Below are positions 3,657 to 30,988 of a DNA stretch of 64,000 nucleotides, in pieces. The notes under the pieces are model-generated. The model worked only from the letters and a program-made list of their open reading frames with translations, made no database searches and was not told the DNA's origin. The DNA is taken from assembly GCA_964622545.1 (NCBI GenBank), contig CAZUQM010000012.1, positions 92,054-156,053 on the forward strand. The letters run 5' to 3'. Positions within the stretch are counted from its first letter, which is position 1, and every line of letters starts with the position of its first letter. Source of the DNA: an uncultured Planctomycetales bacterium (GTDB taxonomy: Bacteria > Planctomycetota > Phycisphaerae > UBA1845 > JAFGLZ01). Made by a program: the position numbers and the translations under genes.

Positions 3657-4766
3657 ATGAAGGACGTGTACGCTCTGCCGGCGATGGATTCCGTCCAGAC
3701 GCCGTGCCTGGTGGTGTTTCCGTCGGTTATTCATCGCAATGTCGATCGCATGGCCGAGTTGCTGGGGGGGCTCCGTCGGCTGCGTCCACACATCAAGACG
3801 CACAAGTGCCGTGAGGTCATCGCGTTATTGATGGCCAGGGGCATCGACAAATTCAAGTGTGCGTCCATCGCTGAGGTGCGGATGCTGATCGAATGCGGTG
3901 TGCGTGACATTCAATTGGCCTATCCTCTGATCGGTCCGGGGGTGGATCGGCTCGCTGCACTCTTGGACGAGCATCGGGATGCGACCGTCTCGGTGACGGT
4001 GGACGATGGCGTCGCGGCCGGCATGCTGAACGAGGCCTGTCGCCGACGTGACAGGCCTGTGGATGTGCTGATCGACCTCGACGTGGGGATGCACCGCACG
4101 GGGATCGAGCCCGGACCCGCGGCGGATGCGCTGGCGATGGCGGTGGCCAAGATGTCACATTTGCGGCTACGGGGCCTGCACGCCTATGACGGCCACATCC
4201 GCGAACGGGCCGTGGAGGACCGACGCCCGCTGGTGGAGGCCGCGATGACCGGTCCGCTTGAGATGAAGCGGCGGCTGCGCGATTCGGGCCTCGTCGAGGG
4301 CCAGCCGACGTTGAGCACCTCGGGCACGCTGACGTTCATCGTGGCTAAGGATTTCGAGGGGATCGACGAGGTGACGCCCGGCACGTGGGTGTTCTGGGAT
4401 GTGACCTACAACGAGATCGACGGTCCTCGCTTTGAGTATGCAGCCCTGGTGGCGTCGCGCGTGGTGAGCCGGCCTTGTCGAGAAGGCGTTACGTTAGACG
4501 CCGGATCGAAGGGCGTGAGTCGCGACATCCCGGGTGATCCTGTGGTCATCGGGACGCAAGGCCTGAGGCTGGGGCACGCGAACGAAGAGCATCAGCCCTG
4601 CCAATGGGACGGGGACGGACCCAGGCCCGCGATCGGCGACGTCGTGCTGTTGGCCCCACGACACGTGTGTACGACCTTTTACCTCTACAGTCATGGTCTG
4701 GCGGTAGAGGAGGGGCGCGTCGTGGGTCGATGGACCGTCGGCTGTCGTCATGGCGACGACGAGTGA
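3657..4766 (+). CDS. D-TA family PLP-dependent enzyme (D-threonine aldolase / D-serine deaminase-like)
   Basis: 369-aa ORF. It has the PHIKTHKC PLP-lysine motif, an alanine-racemase N-terminal fold pattern, and a C-terminal HANEEH...PRHVCTTF block. Confidence 0.75.
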   Translation: MKDVYALPAMDSVQTPCLVVFPSVIHRNVDRMAELLGGLRRLRPHIKTHKCREVIALLMARGIDKFKCASIAEVRMLIECGVRDIQLAYPLIGPGVDRLAALLDEHRDATVSVTVDDGVAAGMLNEACRRRDRPVDVLIDLDVGMHRTGIEPGPAADALAMAVAKMSHLRLRGLHAYDGHIRERAVEDRRPLVEAAMTGPLEMKRRLRDSGLVEGQPTLSTSGTLTFIVAKDFEGIDEVTPGTWVFWDVTYNEIDGPRFEYAALVASRVVSRPCREGVTLDAGSKGVSRDIPGDPVVIGTQGLRLGHANEEHQPCQWDGDGPRPAIGDVVLLAPRHVCTTFYLYSHGLAVEEGRVVGRWTVGCRHGDDE

Positions 4767-22728: not shown

Positions 22729-23625
22729 CTAGCCGTCGCCGCCCACCAGCGCGGCCTGCGCCTGAACCCATCCCTCGGGGATGCCGGCGTCGTAGGCGCG
22801 TCCGTCGATGACGTAGGCCAGGTAGCGGTCGCAGGCGGTGCGGAGCCGTTCCTGCGCGGCCGTCATCTGGATCTCGCCGCGGTCGCGCTCGTTGCGCCGC
22901 ACCATCTCGTCGAGCACAGCTAGGATCTCCGCCTCAAAGATGTGAATGCCGAAATGCGCCAGCCAGCGGTCGTCGGGCAGGCCCGGGCTGACGAGCCCGG
23001 TGCGGGCGTGCTCGACCGTCGGCTTCTCGACGATGCTCTCCACGAGGTAAAGCCCCTCGGCCGAGGGCAGGGGCGTGCCGCGCATCACGCCCACGCGCGG
23101 CAGCGTTGTGGCCTCGCACAGGAACATGCCGCTGACGGCCGCCGGCGCGTGTCGTTCGAAGACCTCGACGAGCTGCTGGGTGCAGGTCTGGCCGCGGCGG
23201 CTGGTGAAGAGGTAGTCGCCCAGCATGAGCACGAACGGCTCGTCGCCGACCCAATCTTTAGCGCACCAGACGGCGTGGCCGAAGCCCTCGGGCGTGGGCT
23301 GCTCGATGCACGTGATCCGCCGGCCCCAGATGTCGAGCTCCTTGCTGATGGCCAGGAGGTTCGTCCGGTCGCCCAGGGCGGCCAGCAGGTCGGGCTCGAA
23401 CGGGCGGAAGTAGCGCCGAACACTCTCGTCCTGTCCGGGCGAGACGACCAGGGCGATCTGCTCGATGCCGGCCGAGAAGGCCTCGGCCGCCAGCAGGTGG
23501 ATGAGCGGCTTGGCCAGGCCGTCGCGGTCGACGAGGGGCATCATGGCCTTGGGGATGGCCCAGGTGGCCGGGAGCTGACGCGTCCCGCGTCCTGCGATGG
23601 GGATGACGGCCTTGCGTAGGGTCAT
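22729..23625 (-). CDS. UTP--glucose-1-phosphate uridylyltransferase-like sugar nucleotidyltransferase
   Basis: 298 aa. The N-terminal KAVIPIAGRGTRQLPATWAIPKAMMPL is a GalU-type GxGTRxLPxTKxxPKxM motif. Confidence 0.75.
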   Translation of the reverse strand: MTLRKAVIPIAGRGTRQLPATWAIPKAMMPLVDRDGLAKPLIHLLAAEAFSAGIEQIALVVSPGQDESVRRYFRPFEPDLLAALGDRTNLLAISKELDIWGRRITCIEQPTPEGFGHAVWCAKDWVGDEPFVLMLGDYLFTSRRGQTCTQQLVEVFERHAPAAVSGMFLCEATTLPRVGVMRGTPLPSAEGLYLVESIVEKPTVEHARTGLVSPGLPDDRWLAHFGIHIFEAEILAVLDEMVRRNERDRGEIQMTAAQERLRTACDRYLAYVIDGRAYDAGIPEGWVQAQAALVGGDG

Positions 23626-23809
23626 GGCTGGCGTTGCCTGCTGGGCGTCGTCGAGCGTCGGGCCGGTTGCCGCTCGCGCCGCACCGCCCGGACGGTGGTC
23701 TGGTCTCCCGCCGGCCTATGATAGCGGCGGACAGGGACTTCGGCCAACCGCCGGAGCGTCTTGACACGACCGGCGGCGGTGGATAAAAGGAAGTGTTCAG
23801 TCTATCGGC

Positions 23810-23883
<74 letters not shown>

Positions 23884-23973
23884 GTCCTGCCCGATGGCCG
23901 GCATCTGTCGTCTCTTCCGCATCTCCGCTGGCACCTCGGTCATAGCGAGCCAGGCTTGCACTGCGCCCCATAC

Positions 23974-24125
23974 TTAGCCCAATCACCCTCGACTGGGGGA
24001 AGTGTAGCCCGGTCGCCCTCGACTGGGGGAAGTGTAGCCCGGTCGCCCTCGACTGGGACGGATGGGGATGAAGCTACACAGCCGGGGGCGGCTGTACCAC
24101 ATCAGCCGGGGGCGGCTGTGCTCCA
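23974..24125 (+). repeat. REP-like composite palindromic repeat cluster 0 (upstream of the RM gene)
   Basis: One degenerate plus two exact copies of GTAGCCCGGTCGCCCTCGACTGGG, with spacer GGAAGT or tail ACGGATGGGGATGAAGCTAC. Two copies of the hairpin unit (A/T)CAGCCGGGGGCGGCTGT follow. Same orientation as the intragenic clusters. Confidence 0.85.
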
Positions 24126-24235
24126 TGACGCACCGCACCCTAGGGTCCTTACGCGTTCAACCGCTTTGTCCGATTCTCGGGACGACGTTCCCGTCACGCT
24201 CGACATCCCACCGCAAATACGTAAGACTCTCCGGC

Positions 24236-27200
24236 ATGTCAGCCCAGCTATCCCCAGCATCCTTCGTCGCTAAATGGTCGGGCACGGCGCTGTCCGAACG
24301 CGCCGCCAGCCAAGAGCACTTCATCGACCTGTGCCACCTACTCGGCCAACCCACGCCGGCCGACCACGACGCCACCGGCGCCGAATACACCTTCGAGAAG
24401 TCCGTCGCCGTCACCGACGCCGCCAGCGCCGGCTCCAAGGGCGACCACGGCTTCGCCGACGTCTGGTGGAAGGGCAAGTTCGCCTGGGAGTACAAGCGCA
24501 AGGGCAAGCACAAGGACCTCACCGCCGCCTACCGCCAGCTCTGCCAATACCGCGAGGCGCTCGAGAACCCGCCGCTGCTCATCGTCAGCGACATCGCCCG
24601 AACCGAGATCCACACCAACTTCACCGGCCGGGCGAAACAGGTCCACACCATCCTGCTCGAAGACCTCGCCGAGCCCGCCTCGCTCGACCTGCTCCGCCGC
24701 GTCTTCACCGACCCGCTCTCGTTCGAGCCCGAGGTCACCGCCGAGCACGTCACCGAGGCCGTCGCCAAGGAGATCGGCCAGCTCGCCCTTCAGCTCCGCG
24801 CCCGCGGCCACGACCCGCACGACACCGCGCACTTCCTCATGAAGTCCATGTTCTGCCTCTTCGCCGAGGACATCCGGCTCCTACCGGCCGACCTGTTCCA
24901 GAAGCTCGTCGGCCAGTGGAAGTCCGACCCCCCCGAGCTGACCAAGGTGCTCACCGAGCTGTTCAGCAAGATGCAGACCGGCGGCGCGTTCGGCGTCGAC
25001 AAGATCGCCTTCTTCAACGGCGGGCTGTTCGATGACGCCCCCGCGCTCGAGCTCACCGACGACGAGGCCAACGTCCTGCTCACGGCCGCCCGGCAAGACT
25101 GGGGCAGTGTCGAGCCGGCCATCTTCGGCACGCTGTTCGAGCGATCGCTCGATCCGAACACCCGCGCCCAGATCGGCGCCCACTACACCAGCAAGGACGA
25201 CATCCTGCTCGTGGTCGAGCCCGTCGTGATGACGCCGCTCCGGCGCGAGTGGGCCGACGTCCAGGCCAAGGTCGCCGAACAACTCGAGCGCCGGGCCGCG
25301 GCCAAGACCAAACCCACGCGGACCAAGGCCGACCGCGCTATCGCTGACCTGCTCGACGGTTTCATCCATCGGCTGGCGACGGTCCGCATCCTCGACCCGG
25401 CCTGCGGCTCGGGCAACTTCCTGTACGTGGCCATTCAGCAGTTGCTCGGTCTGGAGAAAGAGGTCATCACGTACGCCGCCCGGCCCGACATAGGCCTCGG
25501 CCTGTTCCCCCAGGTCCGCCCGACGCAGTTGCACGGCATCGAGGTCAACCCCTATGCGGCCGAGCTGGCGCAGGTGGTCATCTGGATCGGATATTTGCAG
25601 TGGATGCGCGACAACGGCTTCACCGCCCCCAGCAACCCGGTGCTCGAACCGCTCCAGACCATCGAGAACCGCGATGCGATCCTCGATGTAGCCCGGTCGC
25701 CCTCGACTGGGGGAAGTGTAGCCCAGTCGCCCTCGACTGGGACGGATGGGGATGAAGCTACACAGCCGGGGGCGGCTGTACCACAACAGCCGGGGGCGGC
25801 TGTACCACAAGAAGATGTAGCCCGGTCGCCCTCGACTGGGGGAAGTGTAGCCCAGTCGCCCTCGACTGGGACGGATGGGGATGAAGCTACGCCACATCAG
25901 CCGGGGGCGGCTGTACCACATCAGCCGGGGGCGGCTGTGCCACATGAGATCCCCGATGCCAAGGGTGGCCCGGCAAGCTACCGCCGCAATCTCCCTCACA
26001 TTCAACCCGGTCAGCGTCCCGTCTTCGTCACTTTCTGCACACACAAGGGATGGGAGCTGCCTGAGTCGGTACGAGACCTGGTCATCACACACTGTCTCCA
26101 TGACGATAACTCGAAGCTGCAGATGCACGCGCTCGTCGTCATGCCAGACCACGTCCACCTACTCTTCACCCCGGGTCACGACAGCTACGGAAACCCGTAT
26201 GGACTCGCTGAGATCATGAGTGGGATCAAAGGCGCGTCAGCGCACAGTATCAACAAAGCACTGAAGCGTAAGGGACGGGTGTGGCAGGATGAGTCCTTTG
26301 ATCACATTCTCCGCCGGAACGAGAACCTCTTCGAGAAGGGGGAGTACATCTGCCAGAATCCCGTGCGAAAGGGACTCGTCCAGGATGAGAACGACTATCC
26401 CTGGTTGTGGCGCGAAAGCCATGTAGCCCAGTCGCCCTCGACTGGGACGGATGGGGATGAAGCTACACAGCCGGGGGCGGCTGTACCACAACAGCCGGGG
26501 GCGGCTGTGCCACATCAGCCGGGGGCGGCTGTGCCACATAGGCCCACTATCCCACCCTGGCCCGACGCCGACTTCATCATCGGCAACCCGCCGTTTCTCG
26601 GCTCGAAGCTGTTCCGACAGCAGGGTCTCGATGACGAGTACATCCAGGCCATGTTCGACACGTATGAGATTCCCAACACGTCCGACCTGTGCTGCTACTG
26701 GTTCGAGCGGGCGCGACAGGAACTGGAGAAGAACCCACTGCTCCGCGCCGGCCTGCTTGCCACGCAAGGCATCCGCGGCGGAGCGAACCGAAAGGTCCTC
26801 GAACGCATCGAGGACACCGGCGACATCTTCCTGGCCTGGTCGGATCGCAACTGGGTTCTGGATGGGGCTCACGTCCACGTGTCGATCGTCGGTTTCGATA
26901 ATGGCACCGAAAACGAGCGTATGCTTGACGGCAAGCCCGTTTCCGACATCAACGCCTCACTCACCGGCGACATCGACACGGGCAAGGCGAGCGCCTTGGC
27001 AGAGAACACGGGTATCGCCTTCATGGGCGATACGAAGGGCGGCAAGTTCGACATCACGTGGGACGAGGCGCGGGCGATGCTGCCGCAACCCAACCCCACC
27101 GGCAGCTTCAACTCCGAAGTCGTTCGTCCGTGGGTAAATGGGCTAGACATCACGCGACGCGCTCGCAGTATGTGGATCATCGACTTCGGCTGCGACATGC

Positions 27201-28327
27201 CCAAGGACGAAGCTGCCGGTTACGATGTGCCCTTCGGCTATGTCGAGACGCATGTCTGGCCGACACGCAAGGACAACCGACGCGCTGCTTATGCGAAGCG
27301 GTGGTGGTTGCATGTTGAACCACGACCAGAGCTGCGGCAACGAATCGCGCCATTGTCGCGCTTCCTCATTACCCCGCGGCTTACGAAATACCGACTGATT
27401 GCTTGGCACGACCAGCGAACCCTTCCCGATTGCCAAGTGATTGCCTTCGCCCGGTCCGACGACTACTTCTTCGGCGTGCTACACAGCGCGGTGCACGAGT
27501 TGTGGGCGCTTCGGATGGGCACGCAACTTGAGGACCGTCCGCGCTACACGCCGACGACGTGCTTCGAGACGTTCCCGCTGCCCTGGCCGCCGGGCGCCGA
27601 GCCCAATGTAGCCCAGTCGCCCTCGACTGGGACGGATGGGGATGAAGCTACACAGCCGGGGGCGGCTGTGCCACATCAGCCGGGGGCGGCTGTACCACAA
27701 GAAGATGTAGCCCAGTCGCCCTCGACTGGGGAAAGTGTAGCCCGGTCGCCCTCGACTGGGACGGATGGGGATGAAGATACACAGCCGGGGGCGGCTGTAC
27801 CACATCAGCCGGGGGCGGCTGTGCTACATGAGGCAGCTACCTCGCAAACCGCCGCCGCGATCCACCAGCGGATCTCCGACGCCGCGTGCGAGTTGAACGA
27901 GCAGCGCGAGCGGTGGCTCAACCCGCCGGAGTGGATCGACCCCATCGCCGAACAGGTCGACGCCGAGGACGACTTCGCCGACGTGCCGGCCGACGCCCGA
28001 CCGCTGATCCGCCATTCGGCCATCATGGCCCGGGCGGCCAAGGACGCCCGGCTCAAGAAGCGAACGCTGACGAACCTCTACAACGAGCGGCCGACGTGGC
28101 TGCGGATCGCCCACGAGAAGCTCGACCGCGCCGTCCTGGCCGCGTATGCCCACGTCGACCCCGACGGCGACTGGAGCGAAGACTGGGCCGAGGTGTGGAC
28201 CGAGACCGGCGCGGGCCAACGGCTACCCGACGACCACCCCCTCGCCGCCCGCCGCGCCGAGATCGATCAGCGGGTGCTGGCCAACCTGCTGCGAATCAAT
28301 CTCGCGAGGGCCGCAGCCCGGAGCTGA
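24236..28327 (+). CDS. MmeI-family (Type IIL) single-chain restriction-modification enzyme / N6-adenine DNA methyltransferase, carrying in-frame REP and RAYT insertions
   Basis: ORF 24062..28327. The first 58 codons are translated repeat, so the probable start is ATG 24236 (MSAQLSPASFVAKWSGTALSERAASQEHFIDLCHLLG). Family blocks: nuclease-like GFADVWWKGKFAWEYKRKG, motif I ILDPACGSGNFLY, motif IV IIGNPPFLG, RPWVNG, WIIDF, CFETFPLPWP, TLTNLYNERPTWL. Two blocks are foreign to the family, at 25688-26539 and 27608-27829. Confidence 0.75.
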   Translation: MSAQLSPASFVAKWSGTALSERAASQEHFIDLCHLLGQPTPADHDATGAEYTFEKSVAVTDAASAGSKGDHGFADVWWKGKFAWEYKRKGKHKDLTAAYRQLCQYREALENPPLLIVSDIARTEIHTNFTGRAKQVHTILLEDLAEPASLDLLRRVFTDPLSFEPEVTAEHVTEAVAKEIGQLALQLRARGHDPHDTAHFLMKSMFCLFAEDIRLLPADLFQKLVGQWKSDPPELTKVLTELFSKMQTGGAFGVDKIAFFNGGLFDDAPALELTDDEANVLLTAARQDWGSVEPAIFGTLFERSLDPNTRAQIGAHYTSKDDILLVVEPVVMTPLRREWADVQAKVAEQLERRAAAKTKPTRTKADRAIADLLDGFIHRLATVRILDPACGSGNFLYVAIQQLLGLEKEVITYAARPDIGLGLFPQVRPTQLHGIEVNPYAAELAQVVIWIGYLQWMRDNGFTAPSNPVLEPLQTIENRDAILDVARSPSTGGSVAQSPSTGTDGDEATQPGAAVPQQPGAAVPQEDVARSPSTGGSVAQSPSTGTDGDEATPHQPGAAVPHQPGAAVPHEIPDAKGGPASYRRNLPHIQPGQRPVFVTFCTHKGWELPESVRDLVITHCLHDDNSKLQMHALVVMPDHVHLLFTPGHDSYGNPYGLAEIMSGIKGASAHSINKALKRKGRVWQDESFDHILRRNENLFEKGEYICQNPVRKGLVQDENDYPWLWRESHVAQSPSTGTDGDEATQPGAAVPQQPGAAVPHQPGAAVPHRPTIPPWPDADFIIGNPPFLGSKLFRQQGLDDEYIQAMFDTYEIPNTSDLCCYWFERARQELEKNPLLRAGLLATQGIRGGANRKVLERIEDTGDIFLAWSDRNWVLDGAHVHVSIVGFDNGTENERMLDGKPVSDINASLTGDIDTGKASALAENTGIAFMGDTKGGKFDITWDEARAMLPQPNPTGSFNSEVVRPWVNGLDITRRARSMWIIDFGCDMPKDEAAGYDVPFGYVETHVWPTRKDNRRAAYAKRWWLHVEPRPELRQRIAPLSRFLITPRLTKYRLIAWHDQRTLPDCQVIAFARSDDYFFGVLHSAVHELWALRMGTQLEDRPRYTPTTCFETFPLPWPPGAEPNVAQSPSTGTDGDEATQPGAAVPHQPGAAVPQEDVAQSPSTGESVARSPSTGTDGDEDTQPGAAVPHQPGAAVLHEAATSQTAAAIHQRISDAACELNEQRERWLNPPEWIDPIAEQVDAEDDFADVPADARPLIRHSAIMARAAKDARLKKRTLTNLYNERPTWLRIAHEKLDRAVLAAYAHVDPDGDWSEDWAEVWTETGAGQRLPDDHPLAARRAEIDQRVLANLLRINLARAAARS
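25688..25945 (+). repeat. REP-like repeat cluster 1 (intragenic, 258 nt)
   Basis: Two tandem composite units. Each is a 30-nt unit, a 44-nt unit GTAGCCCAGTCGCCCTCGACTGGGACGGATGGGGATGAAGCTAC, then two 24-nt ACAGCCGGGGGCGGCTGTACCACA-type units, joined by AGAAGAT. It translates as VARSPSTGGSVAQSPSTGTDGDEATQPGAAVPQQPGAAVPQED... Confidence 0.9.
25946..26422 (+). other. REP-associated tyrosine transposase (RAYT, HUH/Y1, IS200-like) coding segment without own start or stop
   Basis: 159 codons: EIPDAKGGPASYRRNLPHIQPGQRPVFVTFCTH...ALVVMPDHVHLLFTP (the HUH motif is HVH)...GRVWQDESFDHILR...GEYICQNPVRKGLV (catalytic Tyr helix)...DYPWLWRESH. It is flanked on both sides by GTAG-hairpin repeats. Confidence 0.8.
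26423..26539 (+). repeat. REP-like repeat cluster 2 (intragenic, 117 nt)
   Basis: One 44-nt GTAG unit followed by three ACAGCCGGGGGCGGCTGT hairpin units. It translates as VAQSPSTGTDGDEATQPGAAVPQQPGAAVPHQPGAAVPH. Confidence 0.9.
27608..27829 (+). repeat. REP-like repeat cluster 3 (intragenic, 222 nt = 74 codons)
   Basis: Same composite units in the same orientation and frame. It lies between host blocks CFETFPLPWPPGAEPN and AATSQTAAAIHQRISDAACELNEQRERWLNPPEW. Confidence 0.9.
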
Positions 28328-28660
28328 CGTCACGGATAATCTCACGTCGCGCGCGGTTTCGATGGAAATCCCACCGCGGTAGCCGGATCCGTCTGCGGAC
28401 CCACCGCGACGAAGTCTGACACCGCCGAGGACGCTCCACCCTATCATCGATTACCCCGAGATCTGGCAGAGACGTCCGCGTCCAGTTGCTCGGTGCAAGG
28501 CTAGGCACAAGCGTCTCATCCCCTTTCCCCGTTTTCGCGCGAACCGGCCCGGAACCAAGCGTGTACAAACCGAAGGCTTTCCTGACATTGGCGGGATCCC
28601 TTGCGCCTGATAGAATTCCCGTGCTGGGGGTGATAGTCGCACGCGTCAAAGGACTGCGCG

Positions 28661-30988
28661 ATGGGGCGGTCGGGCCAACGGAAATCCAGCGGCGAAGTCA
28701 CGCCGCGCAGGGCCTGGATCGTGGCACTGCTGGCGATCGCCGTCGCCGGCGCCGCCGCCCGGGCCGAGGTCAAGATCGTCGGCGAGGTCGTCCACACCGG
28801 GTTCCCGTGCGGCAGCCAAGACCTCTTCCGCCCCGGGGCATGGTGCCCGGCCCTGGTCGAGCTCCAGAACCTCGGCGACGAACACCTCAGCGGCAAGCTG
28901 GTCCTGCAACAGCGCGACAAAGACGGCGACGTGATGATCACCGAAAGCGTGGTCGGCCTGGTCGCCGGCGGCCCGGCGCGTCCCTTCCGCATCGACTTCA
29001 TCGCCGAGGAGCCTGGCAGCACCGGCTCGTTCCTCCTGACGCTCTATGACGAGAACGGCCGGCACGTGCCCGTGCAGGACAAAAAGGGCAACGTCCACCA
29101 GGCCCTGCCGGCCCCGCCGGTTCGAAGCCTACCCTCGGATTTCATGCTCGTGCTCGACCTGTCGTCTCGGCCGCTCACGTGGCTGGATGTCCTGGCCGAC
29201 CAGCACGACGCCATGCGGTATCCGATCGCGGTGACCCGGCTCAAGCCCGAGCGGCTCCCCGACCGCTGGTACTGCCTGCGATCGGTGCAGGCCATCGTGT
29301 GGGACCGTCCGGACCCAGACCGCCTGAGTCCCGACCAGATCGAGGCGCTGCTGGGCTTCGTCAAGGCCGGAGGCGTGTTGGCCCTGTCGGCGGGGCGAAC
29401 GGCCCAGACGCTGGCCGACTCGGCGCTGGGCGAGATCCTGCCCGTGGCAGTCAGCGGCACGGACGAGACCGACGTCCTGCAGAAGGTCTGGGACGACCTG
29501 CTCGGCAGCAGGCAGACGGGCGAGCTGGTGCCGCTCTACGAACGCGCGGCGACCGTGGCGCGCGCCACCGCCCGGCCCGACGCCCAGGTCCTGTGTCGCG
29601 AGGATCGGCTGCAAACCGACGTCGTCGTGCGGCGGCGCTACGGCACGGGCGTGGTGACGTTCCTCGGGGTGGAGCTGCACGACCTGCTGCGCCCGGCCGA
29701 GGACCACTTGGACGTCGCGCTGCGACTCTTCCCCGAGCTGCTGGGGCTGGGCATCAGCGCCCGCACCCAGGACGCTCGGCCGCCGAGTATGAAGCTGGAC
29801 CTGGTCGACGAGGTGCACGCGGCGATCGGGTTCCTCGGCCTGGGCGGGGCGTTTCTGATCTTCGTGATGTTCTTCGTGGGGGGCTACATCCTGATCGCGT
29901 CGTTCGCGACGTGGGGCTGGCTGCGGCACCAGAACTCGGTGCAGCACGCGTGGACGGTTTTCGCGGTGGTGGCGGCCGTCTTCAGCGTGTTGAGCGTCGG
30001 CGCGGTGCAGGCGGTGCGAGGCGTGGGGACCGATTTGCGGCAGTTGAGCATCGTCGATGCGTCGCTGCCGACGCAGCCCGGGGCGCCCATCGACGCCCAT
30101 GCCGACGTCTTCTTCGGCGTCAAGACGAGCACGCACACCTACCTGGACATGCGGATCGCCGACGCCGAGGAGGCCCAGCTTGCCGGGCATCGCTGCTCGC
30201 TCAAGCCGCTGCCGGCGGTCCGCGCCGAGGTCAGCCAGACGTATGTGGCGCCCGAGAGCTACACGGTGCGGGCCAGCCAGGCGACGCTGGAGGGCGTACC
30301 GATACGGGCCACGCTGAAGCGTCTCCAGGGGCACTGGTTCGGACGCTTGGAGGGCGCGTTTTCTGCGCTGCTCGAGGCCGACCGGTGGGGGCGGTTCTCG
30401 AAGCGGTGCTTCGTGCGGAACGATCTGGGCTTCGCGCTCAAGGACTGCTACCTGCTGCTGCCCAAGACGCCGCGGATGGGCGGGGTGATCCGAGGCACCC
30501 AGATCAACCTCTTCGAGGTGGCCGCCACGATGCGTGACGGCGAGCAGATCAACCTGCTCGAGCCGGGGATGGCGATCCAGACGTCGTCCACGGTCAACTG
30601 GCCGAAGCTGTCGGACGAGCAGAGCCGGTGGGTCCGGTACTTCGCCAGCATCGGCGGTGCGAAGCGGCGCGAGGCGAACCCCCCGTTTAGCTTCAGCCGA
30701 TTCGCCGCGGCGATCGCGCTGCTGACGACGCTCGACGAGTACGATGTCTACGACAACGCGAGCTGGAGCAAGCCGATCATCCTGCGGACGCACCTGATGC
30801 ACCTGGACCTGTCGCACCTCCTGACGCAGGGGACGGCGCTGTTCGTGGCCGAGGCCGACGTGCCCGGCCCGGCCAGGCTCGCGCTCCGATCGGCCGGCGG
30901 GCCGACGTGGCGCACCGTCGACGAGCCGGATAGGGCCAAGACGGTCTTCCGATTCGCGATTCCCGTCGGCCTGGTGGCCGAACCGTAG
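28661..30988 (+). CDS. large hypothetical membrane protein (signal peptide, central TM helices)
   Basis: 775-aa ORF. It has an N-terminal signal-like WIVALLAIAVAGAAARA and TM segments AAIGFLGLGGAFLIFVMFFVGGYILIASFATWGWL and AWTVFAVVAAVFSVLSVGAV. No family recognised. It sits directly upstream of the ABC transporter genes. Confidence 0.6.
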   Translation: MGRSGQRKSSGEVTPRRAWIVALLAIAVAGAAARAEVKIVGEVVHTGFPCGSQDLFRPGAWCPALVELQNLGDEHLSGKLVLQQRDKDGDVMITESVVGLVAGGPARPFRIDFIAEEPGSTGSFLLTLYDENGRHVPVQDKKGNVHQALPAPPVRSLPSDFMLVLDLSSRPLTWLDVLADQHDAMRYPIAVTRLKPERLPDRWYCLRSVQAIVWDRPDPDRLSPDQIEALLGFVKAGGVLALSAGRTAQTLADSALGEILPVAVSGTDETDVLQKVWDDLLGSRQTGELVPLYERAATVARATARPDAQVLCREDRLQTDVVVRRRYGTGVVTFLGVELHDLLRPAEDHLDVALRLFPELLGLGISARTQDARPPSMKLDLVDEVHAAIGFLGLGGAFLIFVMFFVGGYILIASFATWGWLRHQNSVQHAWTVFAVVAAVFSVLSVGAVQAVRGVGTDLRQLSIVDASLPTQPGAPIDAHADVFFGVKTSTHTYLDMRIADAEEAQLAGHRCSLKPLPAVRAEVSQTYVAPESYTVRASQATLEGVPIRATLKRLQGHWFGRLEGAFSALLEADRWGRFSKRCFVRNDLGFALKDCYLLLPKTPRMGGVIRGTQINLFEVAATMRDGEQINLLEPGMAIQTSSTVNWPKLSDEQSRWVRYFASIGGAKRREANPPFSFSRFAAAIALLTTLDEYDVYDNASWSKPIILRTHLMHLDLSHLLTQGTALFVAEADVPGPARLALRSAGGPTWRTVDEPDRAKTVFRFAIPVGLVAEP

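Follow-up and report, generated by a model that had tools for sequence, protein, structure and literature searches.

The prevailing view holds that REP-associated tyrosine transposases (RAYTs) are single-copy, stand-alone and domesticated, and that repetitive extragenic palindromes (REPs) are extragenic and occasionally found in frame within genes. A RAYT gene flanked by its own REPs, such as E. coli TnpAREP/yafM, is reportedly known as a REPtron. The locus described here raises the question of how such a unit can reside within the coding sequence of another gene, and what it does there. It lies in a 64,000-nucleotide stretch from an uncultured Planctomycetales bacterium (contig CAZUQM010000012.1, positions 92,054 to 156,053; hereafter the window), where a gene for an MmeI-family Type IIG restriction-modification (RM) enzyme contains a whole REP-RAYT-REP cassette in frame, within its methyltransferase (MTase) domain. 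The arrangement was first proposed in a sequence-only reading and is borne out by profile searches and alignment. We argue that the cassette is probably a passenger: a mobile REPtron that is tolerated in a surface loop and translated through.

The host gene occupies positions 24236 to 28327 on the + strand as a single uninterrupted open reading frame (ORF). The frame is open from 24062 to 28327 without a break; the ATG at 24236 was placed by alignment with homologues and gives a product of 1363 aa. Pfam recognizes MmeI_hel, MmeI_Mtase (in two stretches), MmeI_TRD and MmeI_C together with Y1_Tnp, and a precomputed record of the identical protein adds MmeI_N (PF20464). The solved structure of MmeI (PDB 5HR4) matches the host with E=1.7e-43, and the REase_MTase_IIG model of PADLOC with E=1e-259. 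One polypeptide contains, in this order, the nuclease, a helical spacer, a gamma-class MTase, the target recognition domain (TRD) and the C-terminal domain, and all MmeI-family blocks quoted earlier are present in the ORF. The catalytic motifs (D...ExK, motif I and motif IV) are all intact. The PD-(D/E)xK-type nuclease motif D75...E85-Y-K87 (FADVWWKGKFAWEYK; 24458 to 24496, +) aligns with the FVDLFW...IEMK block of MmeI, and its residues D75, E85 and K87 reach 90% conservation or more in our family alignment A1, close to invariance. Motif I for binding of S-adenosylmethionine, DPACGSGNF (25394 to 25420, +), aligns with DPACGCGNF of MmeI, and the MTase catalytic motif IV, NPPF (26585 to 26596, +), aligns with GNPPF; the corresponding columns (D387-F395 and N784-F787) are invariant in A1. 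The MTase domain is not contiguous: the Pfam MmeI_Mtase match is split in two, and the loop between beta3 and beta4 measures 291 residues against 12 in the commonest form among homologues. Motif IV lies 15 codons 3' of the cassette.

The insert consists of three parts and covers 852 nt between RDAILD (ending at 25687) and RPTIPPWPDADFIIGNPPF; the downstream host block that abuts it reads WPDADFIIGNPPF. The left REP array of 258 nt (25688 to 25945, +) is built from two modules of 129 nt. Within each, a linker stands between two GTAG-footed hairpin units of 30 nt and two CAGCCGGGGGCGGCTG hairpin units of 24 nt. The array is translated as VA[RQ]SPSTG...QPGAAVP[HQ]. Next comes the RAYT domain of 477 nt or 159 aa (25946 to 26422, +), assigned by NF047646 and a fold match, followed by the right REP array of 117 nt (26423 to 26539, +), a partial module in which a linker connects a single GTAG hairpin unit with three units of 24 nt. 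The right array is a direct repeat of the left array, with 87 nt as the longest exact common stretch. The part lengths given earlier (258, 477 and 117 nt) are exact; each is a multiple of three and all parts are co-framed with the host.

Two unit types make up the arrays, a 30-nt GTAG-footed hairpin (GTAGCCCRGTCGCCCTCGACTGGG...), present on both flanks of the RAYT, and a 24-nt hairpin (CAGCCGGGGGCGGCTGTRCCACAW). The GTAG-hairpin repeats that had been noticed from the sequence withstand statistical scrutiny: unit matches number 11 and 13 against 0 expected in shuffles, and folding predictions give GTAG-footed hairpins for the units (z-scores -2.6 to -4.5). The units are always on the + strand and, within the 64 kb, confined to this locus. 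Scanning the genome collection, of which the source genome is not a member, with the exact REP unit returned two copies, both in one other Planctomycetales metagenome-assembled genome and in an apparently non-coding context. In such a Planctomycetales genome, exact copies of the 24-nt GTAG hairpin unit of the window lie at L006 919-942 and L007 3425-3448, one of them joined to a CAGCCGGGGGCGGCTG unit, from which it follows that the composite REP exists as an ordinary extragenic element too. Repeated 14-mers elsewhere in the window were considered as a second REP family and discarded as chance matches.

The 159-aa segment had been called a RAYT, and both profiles and fold agree. It reaches 90.6 bits for NF047646 (the NCBIfam model 'REP-associated tyrosine transposase'), above the cut-off of 80, and 31.2 bits for Pfam Y1_Tnp, above the cut-off of 23; the model for insertion sequence (IS) IS200-type TnpA (NF033573) gives 23.6 bits, below its cut-off of 55. 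The domain is full length relative to stand-alone relatives and up to 70% identical to stand-alone RayT proteins of 160-210 aa. Its core is predicted by AlphaFold (AF2) at a local distance difference test score (pLDDT) of 90-97. The best PDB match found by Foldseek is E. coli TnpAREP (4ER8_A; root-mean-square deviation 2.8 A over 136 columns), and the next matches are IS200/IS605 TnpA structures. The HUH motif His-Val-His (26150 to 26158, +) aligns with HMH of TnpAREP, with both His invariant among 78 sequences. In the same 78 the catalytic Tyr (Y in EYICQNPV, codon 26345 to 26347, +; aligned with DYIYINPV of 4ER8) is nearly invariant, and the N and P four and five residues downstream are invariant.

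In composition the RAYT looks foreign to the host gene: its GC content is 0.57, and 0.72 at third codon positions (GC3), against 0.67 and 0.92 in the host. The REPs have a GC3 of 0.54 against 0.92 in the conserved parts of the host, so that they are constrained as DNA rather than as codons. In the AlphaFold model the left array is without secondary structure (pLDDT about 50), and the REP-encoded linkers are predicted to be disordered.

RAYTs usually have their own start and stop and an intergenic position. None of this holds here, as the unit lies inside the ORF of 24236-28327, co-oriented and co-framed with both host halves. Within the RAYT segment there is no start codon upstream of YRRNLPH, and at the 3' end ...W-R-E-S-H is followed directly by GTA-GCC, without a stop. 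The earlier statement that the RAYT lacks both an in-frame ATG and a stop is right about the stop and wrong about the ATG, of which there are three (QMH, VMP, IMS), all internal. An Rfam scan of 23500-28700 (E<=1) returned a tRNA only, and no intron or ribozyme.

The status of the cassette as an insertion follows from comparison with the best 120 homologues of the host. The host family is large and well conserved, occurs in metagenome-assembled genomes of Phycisphaerae/Planctomycetota, and most members are about 1000 aa long. The RAYT cassette occupies what we call site 1 (RDAIL^WPxADFIIGNPPF), a variable loop in the MTase domain. An empty-site check by homologue alignment had been proposed, and it gives a clear answer: 45 of the 120 homologues pass from RDAIL to WPxADF in 12 residues, which is the commonest form. 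Site 2 (PLPWxPGxEP^..RI..AA..LNEQRERW) is situated at the boundary of the TRD and the C-terminal domain, and is crossed in about 4 residues by empty homologues. Compared to MmeI and most homologues, our gene has 284 extra residues at site 1 and 74 at site 2, and its nearest homologues have empty sites. Judging from these alignments, the cassette is an insertion.

The 74 extra codons at site 2 are a REP-only array of 222 nt (27608 to 27829, +), a second in-frame insertion with junctions PLPWPPGAEPN^...^EAATSQ. A third array is extragenic and lies in the leader of the host gene (23974 to 24126, +), where a linker joins three GTAG hairpin units of 30 nt to two units of 24 nt, out of frame with the host start. 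Both arrays come in addition to what the sequence-only reading had described.

Nor is the nested transposase a one-off, as had been assumed. An in-frame Y1 transposase is present in 14 of the 120 best homologues, this gene included; the 13 others carry it at site 1 or at the second site. P0002, P0003 and P0004 have a RAYT of the family of the window at site 2. In P0002 and P0003 site 1 holds a REP-only array, so that they are the mirror image of the window, and in P0004 site 1 is empty. Nine proteins carry a second Y1 class (NHVH...WWT...YVRNQ) at site 1 (P0009, P0026, P0028 from locus L003, P0039, P0041, P0043, P0050, P0057 and P0064), and P0112 (L004/L005) carries it at site 2. This class scores below both NCBIfam cut-offs and matches 'Class 3' TnpAY1 of Quentin et al. 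2018. The two Y1/RAYT classes are unrelated and each has its own, different REPs. In a tree built from the conserved parts of the host, the carriers are interspersed with proteins that lack an insert. Taken together, the scattered carriers and the two classes indicate that the two sites are permissive hot spots, colonised repeatedly. The sequence-only reading had held that an equivalent domain at this position in homologues would speak against an insertion. Taken literally such domains do exist, yet the insertion stands, because the site-1 domain of the homologues belongs to another RAYT class with other REPs, is patchy on the host tree, and is missing from the nearest homologues.

Some further observations on the family can be added. 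Loci L008, L009 and L012 also have the second Y1 class, and in L003 the REPs of that class are scattered through neighbouring intergenic regions too. A third in-frame REP site is seen in P0003 and P0016 (aa ~655-690; L002 2216-2294), inside the MTase/TRD region, with junctions VHVSILGF^AKPVAQTPPSG...^LDGRPV. Public records call some of the chimeric RM proteins of 1288-1412 aa (P0009, P0043) 'transposase', an annotation error caused by the nested domain; users of such records should be aware that relatives of the RM gene go by that name.

As an unbiased sample, 80 metagenome loci were fetched with the N-terminal half of the host alone as bait, so ORF continuity played no part in their choice. 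The canonical gaps in these loci are 36 nt at site 1 and 12 nt at site 2. Enlarged gaps at either site are all in frame and all stop-free, and several consist of recognisable GTAG or hairpin repeats of various families. Seven contigs that end right after RDAIL were suspected of REP-induced assembly breaks; this was rejected, as their tails are ordinary empty-site sequence.

The repeats themselves show a similar regularity, and both observations speak for selection to keep the frame open. The REP arrays of the window are stop-free in only 2 of the 6 frames (read in +1, GTAG yields a TAG stop, and in +2 GGATGAAG yields TGA), and it is in the open forward frame of the REPs that all three intragenic elements are read. 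The unit lengths of 24, 30 and 129 nt are all multiples of three. Across nine loci the intragenic REP arrays have periods of 18, 21, 24, 27, 30 and 39 nt, all divisible by three; periods of the extragenic arrays at those loci include 14, 19, 22 and 32. Pairwise ratios of nonsynonymous to synonymous substitution rates (dN/dS), which are rough because dS is saturated, range from 0.08 to 0.31 for host segments, in line with constraint on the host, and from 0.10 to 0.23 for the embedded RAYT domains. Six of the eight distinct RAYT-bearing loci are intact end to end, against 30 of the 32 RAYT-free loci.

One pair of alleles illustrates how the cassette might come and go. P0003, which has the RAYT at site 2, and P0016, which has REPs alone there, match at 100% identity over the N-terminal half and the C-terminal part. 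Their loci L002 and L088 are orthologous and derive from sister strains, with the same neighbours and flanks that are 97.5-98.5% identical. L002 is longer by exactly 618 nt, made up of the RAYT and a single REP array; a direct repeat of the array, 142 nt long, bounds this extra segment and is present as a single copy in L088 (gene coordinates 2781-3540 of L002 correspond to 2787-2928 of L088), and the ORF is open in both. Such a difference would be the expected product of recombination between flanking direct REP arrays, or of the reverse capture. The earlier suggestion that the cassette is excisable at the DNA level thereby gains indirect support, namely from a filled and an empty allele in a relative.

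A hint as to why the frame survives comes from the stand-alone relatives. Their ORF starts inside the upstream hairpin (GTG-GAA-CAG-CCG..., read VEQPPSAVP) and stops right after WLWREWVEG or runs into the downstream REPs (VAQPSPAA...). The RAYT frame and the open frame of the REPs are thus in fixed register within the cassette. The REP arrays may therefore act as frame-preserving landing pads.

Nesting is also found outside the RM family. We searched 1.84 billion cluster representatives exhaustively with the RAYT, which yielded 8776 relatives, and inspected the best 150. A word-indexed search missed long proteins, the query protein itself included, and nested cases were visible in the exhaustive search only. 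About a dozen of the best 150 are long proteins with an internal RAYT. The same clade of RAYTs is thus nested in valyl-tRNA synthetase (ValRS; P0387/L092, RAYT at aa 407-551), in RecG between the two helicase lobes (P0272, aa 547-693), in alanyl-tRNA synthetase (AlaRS; P0354, P0370), PurH (P0368, P0361) and ThiE (P0268), as well as in a hydantoinase-like protein and another N6-adenine methyltransferase, which is a further reason not to regard the present case as unique. Several of the nested RAYTs have REP-type tandem peptide repeats on both sides. P0381 and P0244 also count among the essential or housekeeping proteins with an in-frame nested RAYT of this clade. A protein search with the 86-aa peptide encoded by the REPs returned no scored hit; with only 20 candidates that had words in common, and with the query's own protein lost as well, probably through composition filters, it has little bearing on other REP-decorated proteins. 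In P0241, an N6-adenine methyltransferase of another family (motif IV NVPY), aa 255-590 hold a RAYT and three 33-aa REP-encoded repeats upstream of motif I, a further nesting site in a defence-type enzyme.

The ValRS protein scores 876.9 bits for valS (cut-off 704) and 94.7 for RAYT (cut-off 80), and its gene has serS, rpmE and prfA as neighbours on a contig of 74 kb. All that flanks the RAYT there is a 27-nt inverted hairpin pair (L092 1162-1188 and 1681-1707), so the nesting cannot be a repeat-driven assembly error. ValRS is normally essential, and nesting in such genes speaks for tolerance of these insertions at the protein level.

On the best reading, then, the cassette is neither an RM-specific invention nor a decaying pseudogene. 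We propose that it is an ORF-nested REPtron in the variable loop between MTase beta3/motif III (RDAIL) and beta4/motif IV (NPPF). Ribosomes would read straight through, and the RAYT would be made as an internal domain tethered by ~95 and ~39 residues of disordered, Pro/Gly/Ser/Ala-rich linker that is mostly REP-encoded. The host enzyme would still fold and be kept by selection, and this selection may be the reason why only in-frame, stop-free versions are seen. Gain and loss would take place by recombination, or by RAYT action, within the directly repeated REP arrays, and the ORF would be preserved automatically given the fixed register of the arrays to the RAYT frame. The element would accordingly borrow the transcription and translation of its host rather than serve as an RM-specific functional module. 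The preference for a passenger over an RM-specific function or a dead gene rests mainly on the nesting in ValRS-type genes. Among the three possibilities raised by the sequence-only reading, a tolerated domain insertion fits best.

A number of points weigh against this account. After notional excision the loop would fall short of the canonical 12 residues by about 5, and NPPF is only 15 codons away, so the enzyme could be impaired. An in-frame GTG at 25937-25939, in the last REP unit before the RAYT, could permit separate initiation of the RAYT. The low dN/dS of the RAYT could date back to a time when it was free-living. A GC content of 67% makes long chance ORFs common, as illustrated by an antisense ORF of 425 aa, and the chance of co-framing is approximately 1 in 18 per stop-less cassette, which makes a single case not significant alone. 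Most of the relatives with a RAYT came from protein calls, so that the collection is biased towards in-frame cases, and the sample taken with the N-terminal half as bait has three RAYT loci only, probably from one event. Finally, one in-frame stop each interrupts the nuclease part of two of the eight RAYT-bearing loci (L004/L005 and L012), a hint that some carriers may be in decay or have shed the nuclease; the difference between 2/8 and 2/32 is suggestive, if too small to test. The stops of these two are located at 9890-9892 in L004 (the same in L005) and near 1924-1926 in L012, within the N-terminal nuclease part, and what is left could be a methyltransferase without nuclease; a further family member, L019, has a stop near 4229.

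Among the other explanations, a DNA-level switch survives best, even if we consider it unlikely. The cassette would turn the enzyme off or alter it, and REP recombination or RAYT excision would restore an active REP-only allele, resulting in reversible RM variation. In its favour, the flanking arrays are direct repeats with up to 87 exact nt in common, the L002/L088 pair with its 142-nt REP repeat comprises a filled and an empty allele with the ORF kept in both, and the insertion is close to the catalytic NPPF. However, an open frame in both states is not needed for an off state, and switching off would be lethal in the case of ValRS and other essential genes that hold the same cassettes.

Somewhat less probable still is that the insertion killed the RM gene, with the frame open by chance at high GC or because the event is too recent for decay. 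The tendency of high GC to keep long chance ORFs open is in line with this, as are the premature stops in two RAYT-bearing relatives and the GC3 of the RAYT, which at 0.72 is not ameliorated to the 0.92 of the host and fits a fairly recent arrival. Against it, all three intragenic elements lie in the one open forward frame of the REPs, every host motif is intact and all intragenic repeat periods are multiples of three. Moreover, the in-frame architecture recurs in many diverged genes with low dN/dS (about 0.1-0.2), so that the earlier proposal of a very recent, not yet decayed insertion is not needed.

We regard a functional neo-fusion, in which the HUH domain has been recruited for a new RM activity, for instance the nicking of hairpins or of single-strand DNA in defence, as very unlikely. 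It would account for the conserved catalytic residues in all embedded RAYT copies and for an architecture that is present in about 12% of the closest homologues. It sits badly with the patchy distribution on the host tree, with two unrelated RAYT classes at two different sites, with presence and absence between near-identical alleles, and with the same cassette in tRNA synthetases, PurH and RecG. Least probable is an assembly chimera, i.e. a free REPtron from elsewhere joined into a REP-only array of the gene via common repeats: the host-REP, REP-RAYT and RAYT-REP junctions would indeed all exist without nesting and exact repeats of up to 87 nt exceed common assembler k-mers, but the arrays differ by point changes every 24-87 nt that 150-nt reads can phase, the same nesting recurs in over 15 assemblies that stem from different projects and were made with different assemblers, the 27-nt inverted pair around the ValRS RAYT is too short to mislead an assembler, and the window RAYT has no stop of its own.

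Returning to the passenger reading, a reading frame at this locus carries the whole REPtron while its host gene has apparently stayed functional, and the same is repeated across the family and in essential genes. A wider generalization is tentative, and we would not yet put it at even chances: ORF-nested REPtrons may form a distinct lifestyle of HUH elements, as start-less and stop-less in-frame passengers in permissive loops of conserved genes, expressed only within the host protein. REPs would then serve as hairpins, flexible peptide linkers and frame-preserving landing pads at once, the last enabling the transposase to move from site to site, in an intein-like manner without splicing. The same tentative idea would cover one RAYT clade and, separately, the Planctomycete 'Class 3' Y1 enzymes, with RM enzymes, ValRS, AlaRS, RecG and PurH as hosts. 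If the chimeric proteins are made, mobile elements would have a novel means of ensuring that they are expressed and stably kept. The natural large insertions would also map permissive sites of Type IIG enzymes, one beside the catalytic loop and one at the TRD boundary, which is useful for engineering.

The surroundings of the gene give some additional context. A tRNA-Arg(ACG) lies directly upstream of the locus (23810 to 23883, +; Rfam tRNA 70.2 bits, also found by ARAGORN) and is followed within 90 nt by the extragenic REP array and then by the RM gene (window 23810-24126). The neighbours of the RM gene differ in every relative examined, and the gene may on that ground sit on a small tRNA-associated island. 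The module from motif IV to the TRD (26540-27607) has a GC3 of 0.78 against 0.91-0.92 in the flanking host parts and looks mosaic. Between P0003 and P0016 (aa ~724-880) the TRD is the sole difference, and the contigs of L014, L051, L054 and L063 stop exactly where the conserved N-terminal half meets the variable middle. Together these three observations suggest exchange of specificity modules between alleles.

How does the cassette compare to known systems? REPtrons are documented as stand-alone genes (Di Nocera 2013, PMC3733652). The present unit resembles them in protein family, fold, HUH motif plus Tyr, and GTAG-footed hairpins on both sides; the stand-alone RAYT relative at L090, for instance, has similar 24-nt ...GGGGGCGGC.GTGCCACAT units downstream. 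It differs in that known REPtrons are intergenic with their own start and stop, whereas here the unit is stop-less and inside the frame of another gene, and all flanking REPs share one orientation. In-frame intragenic REPs have been described as well, in the form of GTAG/CGTC REPs in Opitutus and Thauera and of Rickettsia palindromic elements (RPEs), often in repair (DNA-handling) genes and tRNA synthetases (Di Nocera 2013, PMC3733652). Like these, the repeats are palindromic, read in frame in loops or linkers of conserved proteins and absent from homologues, and the array at 27608-27829 is an ordinary intragenic REP insertion of the described kind. The described inserts encode 20-82 residues, whereas here a transposase gene is included and the insert amounts to 284 residues.

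An intein with a homing endonuclease is a further analogue, in that a selfish nuclease gene lies in frame within a conserved stretch of a host protein that is itself conserved, relies on translation of the host for its expression, and has filled and empty alleles. The difference is that nothing suggests removal of the segment from the protein. An intein proper was considered and rejected: there is no Hint or intein Pfam match, and the junctions D|VARSPS and AVPH|RPT are wrong for splicing, as an intein starts with Cys/Ser and ends in His-Asn followed by Cys/Ser/Thr. IStrons are IS200/IS605-type elements fused to a group I intron, known from Clostridioides difficile and spliced out at the RNA level. 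The likeness is that an HUH (Y1) transposase element resides in coding genes that survive its presence; a self-splicing element of this type was likewise dismissed, since no Rfam ribozyme is found in 23500-28700. MmeI itself (Type IIL/IIG, PDB 5HR4) shares the domain order and motifs of the host, but has a short beta3-beta4 loop and a short linker between the TRD and the C-terminal domain, both of which are enlarged here.

We found no description in the searchable literature of a RAYT nested in frame in a host gene, or of a link between MmeI and RAYTs. A survey of Y1 enzymes by Quentin et al. 2018 removed 'unexpectedly long' TnpAY1 proteins as fusions or annotation errors; chimeric proteins of the present kind, if made, would explain such long Y1 transposases dropped by earlier surveys. 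Overall, the component parts and the phenomenon of in-frame REPs are already known. What is new is that a reading frame carries the whole transposase, that this recurs at fixed permissive sites and that essential genes are among the hosts.

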